DNA of 63,015 bases, filler included, from Basidiobolus ranarum (Eukaryota): NCBI GenBank assembly GCA_040143965.1. It is 6 parts of 6 records of this genome, joined end to end, with 100 filler letters (N's around TTAATTAATTAA, not from the genome) between each part and the next. Parts side by side here need not be neighbours in the genome. Positions count along the whole stretch, not along the records: positions 1 to 10,454 come from JASJQH010007580.1; 5 more parts are not named here. One strand, 5' to 3'. Positions 7,619 through 56,232 of this stretch are shown in pieces (the stretch's first letter is position 1; each line of letters begins with the position of its first letter). Under the pieces are notes generated by a model. The model did no database searches and was not told where the DNA came from. It saw only the letters and a program-made list of their open reading frames with translations. The position numbers were made by a program, and so were the translations under genes.

Positions 7619-8278
7619 GATTGATTAGATACCTGATCAAGTAAAGAGCTCTACTTTACGGCTTTATATAGTGTCAAACTATAAATTTATGCCCTCGTTA
7701 GCTATTTCGATACTTAGTATGATGAGAATATATCGATCATATGCTACTACTAGTTAACTTGCTTGAATACAAAATATCTCTACATTTTCAATCTGGTCTG
7801 GACCGTCAAAAAGATTAGATTATATTGGCAATCTGTAATAATTGAGACCAATCAGCTAAATAGCCACGTATTATATGTATTGCTACCTATAGTTGTCACC
7901 CAGTTAAGTCTCTGGACAGCTAATAGCATTATTCATATAGTGTCCGCTCACTTATGCCGTTGCATGAATCTCATTACTGGACAAATTTACGTATATTTAG
8001 AGATTTACCGAAGTTGGTTTAACAAGGTCTATGTAGATATCCATCCTTTAAATCTAATCTACTTTGGTCCCTGAGAATTCACTCATCAATATTCGTTACA
8101 CAAGGGACGTATGAAGGCCGAGACTACTTTACAAAGGCTATTCTTCATTGAAAATCGGATCTGTCAATATTCAAAAGATCTAGTGTAACTATCGATAGAA
8201 TCTATACTCTATATAAAGTTTAACCATGCCCCAAGTACCATCATAGCAGTATCAACTACTGGCCACTAATCACTAAAT
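7619..8278. promoter_or_regulatory. 660-bp divergent intergenic (promoter) region between the two uricases
   Basis: Head-to-head ATGs. TATATAAA-type elements lie on the minus strand near 7663-7670 and on the plus strand near 8210-8217, each about 45-65 nt upstream of its ATG. Confidence 0.6.
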
Positions 8279-9169
8279 ATGTCTAACAACGCTAACGCCT
8301 ACTTGAAGAAGCAAGCCTATGGCAAAACCAAAGTCCGCGTCACTAAGGTTATTCGCCATACCAGAAATTGGCATGATGTAGTTGAACTTACTTGCCAGGT
8401 TCTTCTTGATGGTAAATTTGAGACCTCATACACCGAAGCTGACAACAGCTCTATTGTTCCTACCGACACTGTCAAGAACACTATCTATGTTCTTGCTAAG
8501 AAATCTAGTAATGTCCAGACTATTGAACGGTTCGGTTATGAGATTGGTCAGCACTTCATCAACAGATACTCTCACGTCGATGATGTTCACATCAAGATCA
8601 TTCAGCACCGTTGGACTCGTGTCAATATCGATGGTCAGCTTCATCCTCACTCCTTCTTCCGTGATGGTGAAGATACCAGACGTGTTGAGTTGCTTGTTTC
8701 TCGCAGTGGTAATGTCACCATCGAGTCTCGCCTTAAGGATCTTCTTGTGCTCAAGTCCACTGGCTCAAACTTCACCAACTTTCATCGTTGTGAGTACACT
8801 ACTCTTCAAGATGCTCATGATCGTATTTTCTCCACCAGTGTAGATGCTAAGTGGACCTACAACTTGGACAAGTCAAAGATTGAGGCCATTCCATTTGATG
8901 AGATTGCTTCTGGTGTTCGCGAGATCACCCTTGGCACCTTTGCCACCGATGATTCGGCCTCAGTACAAGCCACCATGTATAAGATGGGAGAGAGTGTGTT
9001 AGCTCAGCACGTTGATGTCAGTGAGATCAGCTATGCACTCCCCAACAAGCACTACTTTAGTGTCAATCTCAAGCCCTTCAACCTGCACAATGAAGGTAAA
9101 GATATGAACATCTTCCAACCTGTCAGTGATCCATCAGGCTATATCACTGCTACCATTGCCCGCCGCTAA
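8279..9169 (+). CDS. UOX: Uricase (cofactor-independent urate oxidase), copy B, 296 aa, no PTS1 (ends -IARR)
   Basis: Intronless ORF with the motifs YGKTKVRV, VPTDTVKNT, LKSTGS.F, DRIFST, SASVQATMY and LPNKHYF. AATAAA lies about 20 nt after the stop. Confidence 0.97.
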   Translation: MSNNANAYLKKQAYGKTKVRVTKVIRHTRNWHDVVELTCQVLLDGKFETSYTEADNSSIVPTDTVKNTIYVLAKKSSNVQTIERFGYEIGQHFINRYSHVDDVHIKIIQHRWTRVNIDGQLHPHSFFRDGEDTRRVELLVSRSGNVTIESRLKDLLVLKSTGSNFTNFHRCEYTTLQDAHDRIFSTSVDAKWTYNLDKSKIEAIPFDEIASGVREITLGTFATDDSASVQATMYKMGESVLAQHVDVSEISYALPNKHYFSVNLKPFNLHNEGKDMNIFQPVSDPSGYITATIARR

Positions 9170-9823: not shown

Positions 9824-10454
9824 ATGAGATATAACATCGCAGTTACCTTTTGGGCTATAATCTCGGCTACTAATGCGTTACCAGCATACAATGCTCCAAA
9901 GCCAAGCCCAAGCAAGTACTGTACGGGCTTAGTGGACAAACTCAACACTCTTGGTGCTGATTTAGATGTAGCAGTCTGCGTTGGAAAGCCCGAGAAACCT
10001 GGATTTACCCCTACGGATCTTGATAAGATGAGCTGCCAAGAGTTAGTGACTACTGTTACAGCATTAGGGATCAAAGTGGATGCGGGTATTTGTACTAAAA
10101 GTGATAAGAAGTCTTCTGACTATGGAGACGGTGATAGTCAATCTGGGAAGAAAGGGGGCACAGGTCCTAAAGCAAGCTCCTATTCCGACAAGAGCTCTAC
10201 TACCCCAAATCAACATGGAAAGGATAGTAGTGGGAGTGGTACCTATCCCAGTGTAAATCCAGGTGATAAAGGCAGTTTAATAGGACATCAAAACTCAGCT
10301 GGTGGTGAAACTAGTGATAAATACACTGCTCCTGCCAAAGGTAGTAGTCCCAGTGACTATAAAAGTCCAAATAACCATGGTGATTCTAGTGCTACTCCTG
10401 ATAGTGGGAATAAAGGCAGCAAGGAAAATGATAGCTACAAAAGTCCGGCTCCAG
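9824..10454 (+). CDS. Predicted secreted protein with two C-x18-C repeats and an S/G/K/D/P-rich low-complexity tail; 3' end cut by the contig end
   Basis: The ATG at 9824 gives a signal-peptide-like start, MRYNIAVTFWAIISATNA-LP. Repeats CTGLVDKLNTLGADLDVAVC (9920-9979) and CQELVTTVTALGIKVDAGIC (10034-10093). The frame is open to the N spacer. Confidence 0.75.
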
Positions 10455-51648: not shown

Positions 51649-52474
51649 TTAAGGACATGTGCCGCTTAAACTGTATGGAGGAGCGCTGTAACCAGCCTGA
51701 CTCCAAGTGGTTAGGTTGGGATTGCTGTAAGCATTCCAATGCTTGTTAATGTATTTAGCCGTTGGGAAGTCAGGTGGATTGCATCCGATATTAATACGTT
51801 CAGGATGTTGATAAAGTCGAACATAATCAATTCTCATAATGGATGGGAAAACAAGTTTATCCCATTGAATATTCTCGGTAAAACTTGTGGATATCGCCAA
51901 GTTCATGATCATATACATCGGTTCTGCTGCGATCAAACGTTGGGCCACTTTGCTCTTAGGATTGGGACCTAACGCCGCTGCATCTAGACGCCAAGTAGGC
52001 TTCCCGTTCATAAGCCAAGTAACGTATCCCGTTGGTCCAGGTTCATACTCAATTCCATATGTTTGATAACCTTTGCCATCGTATACGTCCAAAGGAACTG
52101 TCGTTAAAGCAGAGGCAAATTGTTGAAGTGGAGTACCACGATATTCATTCAGTGTAGTGATGGAATCATCGTATATTTTAGTGTATGCCTGGTTCATTAA
52201 TTGGCCACTATCAAATGGAGCAATTTGATGAGTTTGGGATGCTTTTCCAGGGATTCCTTTGTCGTGACTACCAACAACTTCAATGATATCAATTTCTGGA
52301 GCAGCACGACCTTTGCCAGGAGAGGGATGATCTTCACCAGAGCAAACACATTTATTCAGTCTTTGACCTGGAAGGCCAGATAAAGTCTCCGTTATGGACT
52401 GATTTAGAGTGACTCCAGTATCACAACTGTCATAGCTATATGGCCAAACACCCTCTGTGGTAGCACCATATCCA
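51649..52474 (-). CDS. KRE6: KRE6/SKN1 beta-glucan synthesis-associated GH16-like protein, last exon only (5' part lies beyond the contig end)
   Basis: After the acceptor at 52475: GYGATTEGVWPYSYDSCD...LPGQRL..C.C.GEDHP..GKGRAAPEIDIIE...APFD...LNEYRGTPLQQ...EPMYMIMNL...MRIDYVRLYQ...C.PPDFPT..YI..H..AY.NPNLTTW. Confidence 0.93.
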
Positions 52475-52524
52475 CTAAAATTGTTTGTTAGTTTCTATTA
52501 CCAAAAGAATATCTTCCATCAAAT

Positions 52525-52624: not shown

Positions 52625-53066
<442 letters not shown>

Positions 53067-53615: not shown

Positions 53616-56232
53616 TCACTTTTTGTACCACTGCTTCTTGAACAGCGGATGATGCTCTCCAGAAGAAGCTCCTCGCGAGCCACCACTTCGAACCGCTCTG
53701 TTGGGCTCCATGTAAGCCATATCATCTCCACCAGCCAGTGACTTCATAGATCCTGCACCACGTTTGACCAAGGGTCTCTTAGATGACCGAGAGGACACAT
53801 CATCAGCATCAACGGGTACATCTAGATCTGCCTCATCATCATTTGCCATTAGGACACTTTTTAGAAGTTCCATTTGAGACTCCTTGGATCTATACACAAG
53901 ATTAGGATCAGCCTCCATACCCTCAAGGTGAGTGATAACTTTGAAAGCATATCCTTGATCGATCAAGAACTGTTGACGCTTAGTGGAATAGTACATTTCT
54001 TGGGTATCTTTAGAAACAAGTGAGTAAAAGAAAGCATTGAATCCCTCATCATTACGGCGCTTAGCTCTGAGGATACGCCCTAAACGCTGGGCTTCTTGAC
54101 GTCTAGAACCATAATGAGAGGAGATTTGAATCAAGCATGTTGCCTCTGGAAGATCGATAGAAGTATCACCAACTTTGGACAGGAAGATCGTACTCAATTG
54201 TGGATTGTGCTGGAATTGCTGTAGAATTCTAAGTCGTTCTTGCTGCCCAGTACCACCATAAATGTAAGGTTTCTTTAGCTTGAGGGCATAGGCCTTCAGG
54301 GCATAAACGTTATCTGAGAATACGATGATCTTATCTCCTCTCCTCTCATGATAATCAATCAAATATTGTGCAGCCTGGAACTTCTTAGGATTCATGACGT
54401 AGAGCAACATACGCTTTCTCGAACTCTCGCCCAGATATTCTCGATAAAACTCTGGAGTCATTGGACACCATACTTCAGCACACTGTACAGTGGCAATATG
54501 TCCTTGTTGAGAGAGCTCCATCCAATTCGCTTCATAGAGTTTGGGACCAATCAAGAAATTAAGATCGTCAATCTTCTCATCTTCACGTACAAGGGTCGCG
54601 GTGAGACCAAGTTTAGCGTGAGCGGCAATAGTACTGACCACTTTACGAAACATGTTCGCGGGAACCACATGTACCTCATCTAAAAGAATGAAACCCCACT
54701 CTCGGCTGGTTAAGAAGTCCATCATCTTTTGTGCATCATGCGAGCGATTACGAGTATTGGCAACCATGGAGTATGTAGACACAACGATACCGGATTCACC
54801 CGAGAATCTCTCTTTCTGTTCGGAAGTAAACACGGCTATTTGACGCTCACTAATGCTTGACCACTGAAGGTACTGTTGTTTCCACTGATTTACCGACACA
54901 GAGGAAGTACAAAGCACCAGGGTGCTCTTTTTAATTGTGCACGTAGCTGTAATTCCAACCAATGTTTTACCGGCTCCACACGGAAGCACAATAATACCCG
55001 AACGAGCACGGCCGTTACCAAACATTTTGCTGAGACTCTTCTCTTGATAAGGACGAATAGCGGTAATGGGCTTCAGATCGATCTCCAAGTTAGGATTGAT
55101 GGTGTCATTACGGAAATCGTACTCTTCCAACATGGGATAATCAAGTTCGGTACATCTTTTCTTGACAATTTCTACGAATCCAGGGTCAATTTCGAAAGAA
55201 TGTACTTGATCTCCGTCGTCCTCTTCCTGGTCGTCCTTGTCGATATCAACCACTGCAAAGATCTCATCCTCCGTGCTTGCCTTTTCTTCTGTGGTTTTCT
55301 CTTTCTGATCTTCTTTGCTTTTTATACCTGGGATTTTGAGATCTTTACCCGAAGGCGCTTTAGACGAGATCAGGTCCTTTCCCTTGTCGTCGGAAGAAGC
55401 GATTCGGGATTGTGCAATGACTTGGTCTCGGAGAAGTAGCTGAAGAATCTCTGGGTGTGAAGATTCGACAAAATACCGATTATGATTCAAAACCAACTTG
55501 ACCTTGCCGTATGATAGGGTACACTGTCTAATGAACTGGATGATGGGCTCAGGTACTGGGGCCTAAAAGACATTGGAAATTATGTTATGGGTATGGTTTC
55601 TATTATTATGAAATAGCAACGCAACTAGGTACCTTTGATAATCTGTTTAGTACGTCAATAATATCCTGCGTTTCCAAACCGACAGATACAGCAGCATATA
55701 AAGAGTAAGGAGTCAACCGGTATTCATGGATATATGATGGTCTAACCGAAGATTACAAAGAGTGAGCTTACAAATGGAAAAAAAAAATGGATTTTTTCAG
55801 AGGAATGTTGAAATAATACCTGCTCACTGGTTCACTAATTGCAATCAAGAAATCTTGAGCTTGTTCAGCAATTGGCGAGAACCCTTCTAGAATGATGTGA
55901 CCATTCTCCGGACTGATCCAAAGAGGTCGAGATTCGTGATCTGGCTTTAATGGTAAATAGGTGTAATCTTCGTCACCAAAAATGTGTGACACTGAATCAC
56001 GATTTATATGAGCCTTTTGTGGTGCGATGGAGCTTACTTCCAGCGTAGCATTTTTGGGCACTATTTTAGAAACAAAAACAATAGGATTAAATCCAATTTT
56101 CATTCAACCAGAAATTCCCTAGTTTCCAAAATAAAATAACATACACATTGCTTGTGCTTGAGCAAACAATTCGTCCTCAAAATCCTCATCATCAAGTGAG
56201 GGTGACCCTTTACGCTTTTGACTAGTATTCAT
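53616..56232 (-). CDS. SSL2: TFIIH helicase XPB (SSL2/RAD25); exons 56232-56145, 56060-55820, 55741-55633, 55562-53616
   Basis: [88 protein letters not shown]. Three GT-AG introns keep the frame. Confidence 0.97.

Follow-up and report, generated by a model that had tools for sequence, protein, structure and literature searches.

A two-cysteine module in two gene fragments of Basidiobolus ranarum points to an undescribed protein family with no members yet found outside its genus

Domain libraries cover the early-diverging fungi thinly, and the wall and spore-surface proteins of these fungi are little characterised. Basidiobolus dwells in the guts of amphibians and reptiles, is dispersed on insects and causes occasional human infections. 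Here we describe a module of ~20 residues, bracketed by two cysteines, that occurs in two genes of Basidiobolus ranarum. Both lie at contig edges within a stretch of 63,015 nucleotides (the window; assembly GCA_040143965.1), which consists of six ~10 kb pieces of the assembly with runs of N between the pieces. The family to which the two genes belong is probably a lineage-specific form of a familiar type, the secreted disulfide-containing fungal repeat protein.

Among described systems, hydrophobins resemble the module family, whose products are likewise small-module, probably secreted and disulfide-containing fungal proteins, and the family has an amphipathic element; it differs in lacking the eight-cysteine pattern and in being modular, with up to 582 residues and long disordered linkers. 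Kex2-processed repeat proteins and the Ustilago repellents likewise have a signal peptide followed by tandem short units, and PMC7329392 reports more Kex2-processed repeat proteins for B. meristosporus, 43, than for any other strain; the module family differs in having no regular dibasic sites, and none of its 11 B. meristosporus accessions is in the supplementary lists of PMC7329392. As PMC8596622 shows for the hyphosphere proteins, one of several newly named groups of small, surface-active, secreted cysteine-rich proteins, the surface properties of fungi can be tuned by lineage-limited secreted cysteine proteins that are not hydrophobins; here the analogy is one of kind, made without sequence comparison. 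Uncharacterised public proteins of B. meristosporus CBS 931.73 (ORX77975.1, ORX80994.1, ORY04317.1 and ORX94181.1) and of B. ranarum (KAK9745760.1 and KAK9688550.1) share the module and its four-cysteine pairing with the window genes, and have signal-like N-termini and low-complexity linkers. These relatives differ in having 2 to 14 modules and widely varied linker composition, and they carry no described function or family name. A full-text literature search found no description of the family or its accessions in the texts searched, and passages on Basidiobolus in PMC9391592, a study of zygomycete secretomes, are silent on it.

In the window, piece 1 closes with gene 1 and piece 6 opens with gene 2; the two genes are thus on different contigs, and both loci are gene fragments cut by contig ends. 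Their features are as follows, with bits given against a profile hidden Markov model (HMM) of the module:

9824..10454, + strand: gene 1, 5' fragment of 210 codons; ATG at 9824, frame open to the contig end, where a run of N follows
9824..9877, + strand: signal-peptide-like N-terminus, residues 1-18 (MRYN, a hydrophobic core, then T-N-A); putative cleavage site placed by eye
9920..9979, + strand: module N1, Cys33-Cys52, C-x18-C, reading CTGLVDKLNTLGADLDVAVC; 25.7 bits
10034..10093, + strand: module N2, Cys71-Cys90, C-x18-C, reading CQELVTTVTALGIKVDAGIC; 35.5 bits
10094..10454, + strand: low-complexity hydrophilic linker of gene 1 (S 22%, G 15%, K 12%, D 10%, P 8%; ILVFMW 2.5%), open to the contig end
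52716..53066, + strand: gene 2, 3' fragment; A/P/G linker, two modules, 8-residue tail and stop
52806..52868, + strand: module M1, Cys61-Cys81, C-x19-C; 26.7 bits
52980..53039, + strand: module M2, Cys119-Cys138, C-x18-C, followed by the subfamily C-terminal tail LPDIKIQL; 33.4 bits

An earlier note on this DNA had quoted four C-x18/19-C modules, and these are present letter for letter, each in its place, on the two contigs. The cysteines of gene 1 are residues 33, 52, 71 and 90, and those of gene 2 are residues 61, 81, 119 and 138. In gene 1, N1, an 18-residue spacer and N2 together make a four-cysteine di-module, C-x18-C-x18-C-x18-C.

On the evidence of profiles, the two genes are related beyond chance. 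A BLASTP comparison of their products was weak (best local E 0.005, 9/25 identities). We built a first module HMM from 13 modules, all from gene 1 paralogues, and ran it against the 2025 six-frame open reading frames (ORFs) of the window. The gene 2 frame ranked first after gene 1 (E 4.1e-4; next ORF E 0.12), and 0/2000 shuffles of the gene 2 product reached its 18.4 bits, the shuffle maximum being 9.4. With a second HMM, made from 83 distinct modules of family members with the gene 2-type proteins excluded, gene 2 scored 42.8 bits (E 1.2e-11 over the same ORFs), and again no shuffle of 2000 reached the score (maximum 11.2). Gene 1 gave E 2.4e-17 with this HMM, which contained its own modules. 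Against the module HMM, the scores of the four window modules run from 25.7 to 35.5 bits. The profiles thus settle what BLASTP leaves marginal, and they bear out the earlier proposal of a module common to two unlinked genes.

Both loci can be placed, by profile searches, in one undescribed family, so far found only in the genus Basidiobolus. We defined this unnamed family of two-cysteine modules and four-cysteine di-modules by two profiles, A1 and A2. Profile A1, made from seven di-modules, was searched against 1.84 billion representative proteins and gave 27 matches at E <=1e-3, with 14 at <=1e-10 and 5 at <=1e-30. Traced to source, 24 of the 27 are family members: 17 from B. ranarum, including window gene 2, and 7 from B. 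meristosporus CBS 931.73. The other three are two metagenome proteins with bacterial-type repeats (P0020 and P0031) and one insect protein (P0030). We rejected all three as family members; P0030 has no modules. Other fungi, including other Entomophthoromycotina, gave no match in this search at E <=1e-3. A second search, with a 25-row profile and aimed at longer proteins, gave 19 matches, all to named Basidiobolus and 8 of them new; it was not exhaustive, in that 8000 candidates were scored and known members were missed. Including cluster members, the family numbers 42 distinct records (B. ranarum 26, B. meristosporus 16), each with between 2 and 14 modules, and is indeed expanded, as had been suggested from the window.

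Gene copies share contigs in both species. Three B. ranarum family genes have consecutive locus tags on a single 5956-base contig, and most of a group of 107-residue B. meristosporus family proteins are encoded on one contig. A signal-like N-terminus was found by a simple rule in 27/42 records, and most of the others are fragments or have internal starts. Directly after the signal-like stretch, six proteins from two subfamilies (P0009, P0016, P0017, P0023, P0045 and P0046) have a V/A-E-R-[GDA]-Y motif, which might mark the conserved start of the mature protein or a site of processing.

The metagenome matches bear on the origin of the module. Profile A1 matched P0020 at E 1.7e-10 and P0031 at E 2.3e-4, and the bacterial and fungal units look alike at both ends (C-D-S-I-V and V-D-A-S-I-C); the module could in principle have been acquired from bacterial cell-surface repeats, namely the Bacteroidota gliding-type proteins with GCDSIVTTNLTVN...VDASIC units. 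We regard this as extremely improbable. The bacterial repeats score only ~8 bits per unit against the module HMM. Alignment of the bacterial and fungal profiles by hhalign covered 11 columns with a probability of 46%, and the common part was the V-D-A-x-I-C end only. The bacterial units also have a cysteine spacing of ~22, match Ig-like domain models and are Thr/Val-rich in the first half, as against Ala/Arg/Leu-rich in the fungal module. PF19081, the model for bacterial Ig-like CHU_C-associated repeats, has no match in 33 family records, and similarity of profile across the whole unit was not found. The metagenome proteins P0020, P0031 and P0040 are themselves bacterial gliding-type proteins with tandem ~52-residue units (GCDSIVTTNLTVN...VDASIC...LPDGS); we judge them unrelated, with a short end motif in common with the fungal profile.

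Comparison with family members indicates how much of each window gene is missing. Residues 1-95 of the gene 1 product (P0001) are 100% identical to the B. ranarum NCBI record P0003 (K7432_010338) and 73 to 83% identical to four paralogues from the same assembly. Two full-length paralogues, P0005 (289 aa) and P0007, show what the whole of gene 1 would look like: a signal-like N-terminus, the di-module C-x18-C-x18-C-x18-C, a ~140-residue S/G/K/D/P-rich linker and a C-terminal di-module at the very end. The B. meristosporus protein P0013 (ORY04317.1) has the same architecture. Gene 1 breaks off inside the linker because the contig ends there, and by comparison with the 289-aa P0005 it lacks ~80 residues, including the C-terminal di-module. 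The N-terminus that is present has, by the simple rule, a basic start, a 9-residue uncharged hydrophobic window and T-N-A before L19. The public gene 1 model P0003 (187 aa) ends in ...NNHGK, while the open frame (10370-10454, + strand) goes on with ...NNHGDSSATPDSGNKG... to the contig end. Since the paralogues P0005, P0006 and P0007 read through the same stretch, the end of P0003 looks like a contig-edge artefact.

The gene 2 frame is open from the first base of piece 6 and reads 52626-53063, with a stop at 53064-53066; the 5' end of the gene is missing from the contig. Its full-length relatives are P0023 (ORX94181.1) from B. meristosporus and P0045 and P0046 from B. ranarum, all of which pass the simple signal-peptide rule, and by comparison with these the fragment is the last ~115 codons of a ~400-residue protein. 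The order in the relatives is a signal-like N-terminus, a long acidic His-/Arg-rich region, a lone module, a G/S/P/N linker and a C-terminal di-module that ends ...VVCLP[DE]I.I... A further B. meristosporus record, P0041 (739 aa), comes from the same contig as P0023 and has the whole gene 2-type architecture twice, with a signal-like stretch in mid-protein; this model seems to be a fusion of two tandem genes. The first codons of the gene 2 frame are of a different kind:

52626..52712, + strand: match of 29 codons, in frame with gene 2, to cytochrome c oxidase subunit 1 (PF00115, E 2.8e-7, profile positions 386-414)

This match scores 30.2 bits, under the Pfam curated cut-off of 34.8, and the GC content of the segment is 0.374 versus 0.511 downstream. 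Its probable origin is a chimeric assembly or an inserted mitochondrial piece at the contig edge, and the segment lies outside the module family. The gene-caller product P0008 starts at a Met within it.

The consensus module is C-x2-[ILV]-[VI]-A-x-[LAV]-x2-L-G-[IL]-x-[VA]-[DN]-A-x-[VI]-C. Across the 42 records there are 131 cysteine-bracketed modules with HMM support, 96 of them distinct, and the spacing between the two cysteines is 18 in 97/131 and 19 in 34/131. Module brackets account for 262/388 cysteines of the family records; those outside are mostly in degenerate modules or in the Pro/Lys-rich C-K-x-C linkers of one subfamily. The most conserved interior positions, counted over 72 distinct x18 modules, are:

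position 12: Gly, 93%
position 11: Leu, 83%
position 16: Asp or Asn, 77%
position 17: Ala, 76%
position 6: Ala, 70%
position 5: Val, 68%

Modules are mostly paired, giving a four-cysteine unit of 60 to 80 residues, and these units either cap a protein at one of its ends or are repeated in tandem, with as many as 14 modules in an array. In P0009, P0010 and P0011 the x18 and x19 modules and the linker lengths alternate regularly. This alternation, together with the retention of the C-x18-C-x18-C-x18-C unit in both species, suggests that the module pair is the repeat unit. We also tried to treat first and second modules of a pair as distinct classes, with 40/46 classified correctly, but this was confounded by shifts of the pairing register in long arrays and was not used. 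Lone modules, with >90 cysteine-free residues around them, occur in P0023, P0045 and P0046; the spacings in P0023 are 18, 91, 19, 42 and 18.

From one detected module to the next, the linker spans between 13 and 355 residues, with raw inter-module cysteine spacing as low as 8 in P0011. The linkers are hydrophilic, nearly free of hydrophobic residues, low in complexity and fast-changing, and show no conservation from one species to the other. Gene 1 has a linker of S/G/K/D/P/Y type, one further subfamily has P/K linkers, and P0013, the B. meristosporus relative of gene 1, has a P/D/Y linker; in P0013 the di-module is kept at 50% identity and the linker is Pro/Asp/Tyr-rich rather than Ser/Gly/Lys-rich. 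The description of the linkers in the earlier note as flexible and G/P/S/N-rich holds only in part, in that the inter-module spacer of gene 2 is partly hydrophobic and not purely G/P/S/N-rich. The linkers of one subfamily (P0014, P0024 and P0043) are Pro/Lys-rich with repeated P-P-[VT]-[YN]-P-P-T-P-E-[KE]-P and C-K-[TS]-C motifs, which recall extensin-like or adhesive repeats.

We compared the family with known domains. A Pfam scan of 33 family records (E up to 10 or up to 1) returned no model that matches the module family, and sequence searches of the Protein Data Bank (PDB) gave no credible match, in agreement with the claim that the module corresponds to no known domain. Low-scoring PDB sequence matches to a bundle-forming pilus subunit (19 bits, E 0.0074) and to a proteasome beta subunit and triosephosphate isomerase (12-13 bits, E above 1) were treated as chance, the proteasome segment being a local look-alike.

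UniRef names two members, P0014 and P0042, 'Hydrophobin' and a third, P0010, 'Xylose isomerase-like TIM barrel domain-containing protein'; no Pfam match backs any of these names. The first label raises the question of whether the proteins are divergent hydrophobins, true relatives of the eight-cysteine fold. The proteins are predicted to be secreted, as hydrophobins are, and the L-G-[IL]-x-V-D-x-x-V-x-C segment may be loosely like hydrophobin loop sequences. However, the label carries little weight because the same source labels another member as a xylose isomerase-like TIM barrel. The hydrophobin pattern C-CC-C-C-CC-C is absent: the window genes have four cysteines each, none adjacent, just as the earlier note had read their spacing, and no zero, i.e. 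no CC doublet, occurs among the cysteine spacings listed for 34 family records. Neither hydrophobin Pfam model (PF01185 or PF06766) matched any of the 33 records. A relation to hydrophobins therefore fails on both cysteine pattern and HMM match, and we give it almost no credence.

The tandem arrays suggest another possibility, in which the proteins are precursors cut between modules to release ~20-residue, disulfide-cyclised, pheromone-like or antimicrobial peptides, as with Kex2 repeat proteins and the Ustilago repellents. P0009 and P0011 do have tandem arrays of near-identical units after a signal-like stretch (the model of P0010 starts inside a module and has no signal peptide), and the reported abundance of Kex2-processed repeat proteins in B. 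meristosporus, cited above from PMC7329392, would fit. Cleavage sites are less accommodating: KR or RR is present in just 14/91 inter-module linkers and is not regularly placed, and the linkers of P0009 and P0010, read by eye, have no regular dibasic site. The lack of any of the 11 B. meristosporus accessions from the lists in that paper tells in the same direction, and many members have just two or four modules with linkers of >100 residues. A repellent-type precursor is thus not supported by the linkers and we rate it as very unlikely.

The best explanation overall, to which we give an even chance, is that this is a single Basidiobolus-only family of secreted proteins with a beads-on-a-string build, located in the wall, on the spore surface or in an adhesive matrix. 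In most of the complete gene models the N-terminus is signal-peptide-like, and the proteins would enter the secretory pathway. Each module would begin with a short helix in its first half, turn at the conserved Gly and continue as an amphipathic beta-strand in its second half; it would be closed by its own disulfide, and the two modules of a pair may pack their hydrophobic sides together. The disulfide-closed units could then act as contact or cross-linking points, with the Ser/Gly/Lys/Pro/Tyr-rich linkers serving as hydrated, possibly glycosylated spacers. Cysteine-bracketed units on disordered, hydrophilic, fast-changing linkers are typical of extracellular matrix, wall, spore-surface and adhesive proteins, which is why we favour a wall or surface role. 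That role is the weakest step of the proposal; we infer it to be the most likely one.

Some features of the module fit this proposal. Hydrophobic and polar residues alternate across positions 13-20, with a hydrophobic moment at 180 degrees of 0.76 versus 0.28 +/- 0.21 in shuffles, and 72% of modules lie above the 95th percentile of shuffles for this strand-type periodicity. The fixed inner spacing, the freely varying linkers and the lone modules >90 residues from any other cysteine are together the pattern that one disulfide per module would give. In AlphaFold2 models of full-length P0005 (single sequence) and of the gene 1 di-module (25-row alignment), both of low confidence, a helix is placed on the first half of the N-terminal modules, and the single-sequence model, again with low confidence, places strands on three module second halves. 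A helix-turn-strand module can accordingly be inferred from the sequence pattern together with these weak predictions.

A number of observations weigh against the proposal. Module positions 2-12 are hydrophobic-rich and have a helix amphipathicity of 0.30 versus 0.29 in shuffles, i.e. no excess; the amphipathic hairpin envisaged in the earlier note is thus borne out by the two-residue periodicity of the second half, whilst its first half is no more amphipathic than shuffles. The mean pLDDT (the per-residue score of AlphaFold2) was 37.4 for P0005, the di-module model reached a pLDDT of 55.4 and a pTM of 0.37, and the alignment-based model has no strands. A disulfide within each module is consistent with the data, with the pairing deduced from spacing only. 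Signal peptides were judged by a home-made rule and not by a trained predictor. No membrane-anchor-like hydrophobic tail is visible at the C-terminus, the products ending directly after the last module, so that covalent attachment to the wall is not indicated, and there are no conserved aromatic residues suggestive of sugar binding. Finally, what argues for a wall or surface role is the protein architecture, which an interaction or effector role would fit equally well.

Structure searches added little. Foldseek of the alignment-based model against the PDB gave 0 matches at E <=0.001 (best E 5), a result that is meaningless at such model quality. In the ESM Atlas, P0005 and P0013 gave one Zoopagomycota cluster with a score of 0.76, below a usable lead, and no structure model of either protein.

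The same architecture would also suit secreted interaction proteins or effectors, in which multivalent units bind gut mucus, insect cuticle, microbial surfaces or proteases instead of the fungus's own wall. Apparent secretion, restriction to one genus, tandem duplication and a varying number of modules are commonly seen together in proteins at the interface of an organism, and fast-changing linkers beside conserved modules fit multivalent binders. Against this, neither the Pfam scans of the 33 family records nor the PDB sequence search found homology to a binding domain, there is no known partner, and a conserved aromatic or charged patch was not identifiable with the low-confidence fold. The data do not separate this possibility from a structural role; we hold it to be unlikely.

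A more specific possibility, which we consider quite unlikely, is that the module is a new kind of self-associating, surface-active or adhesive block that does in Basidiobolus what hydrophobins, repellents or adhesins do elsewhere. At the spore surface, amphipathic strands from the many modules of a single chain would zip up with one another, and the Ser/Gly/Lys/Tyr/Pro-rich linkers would form a hydrated or cross-linkable matrix. Basidiobolus has discharged conidia and sticky capilliconidia.

The genes neighbouring the two loci are:

8270..9166, + strand: uricase gene, upstream of gene 1 (E 2.2e-71)
51652..52494, - strand: gene fragment of KRE6/SKN1 type (beta-glucan synthesis), truncated where the contig of piece 5 ends (E 6.6e-110)
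53619..55562, - strand: XPB/RAD25 helicase, downstream of gene 2 (E 3.2e-128)

These are ordinary genes, and none of the three offers a functional hint for the modules.

Taken together, the profile searches support an unrecognised and expanded family; the proposed structure is plausible, though unproven. A compact module that is easy to recognise defines at least 42 predicted secreted proteins of Basidiobolus, and after sorting of the A1 matches at E <=1e-3 it is without counterpart outside the genus among the 1.84 billion representative proteins. A module profile would let annotators replace the misleading automatic labels 'Hydrophobin' and 'Xylose isomerase-like'. If the module turns out to self-associate or to adhere, it would be a small disulfide-closed scaffold of a new kind; otherwise the proteins would be an ordinary lineage-specific secreted family.

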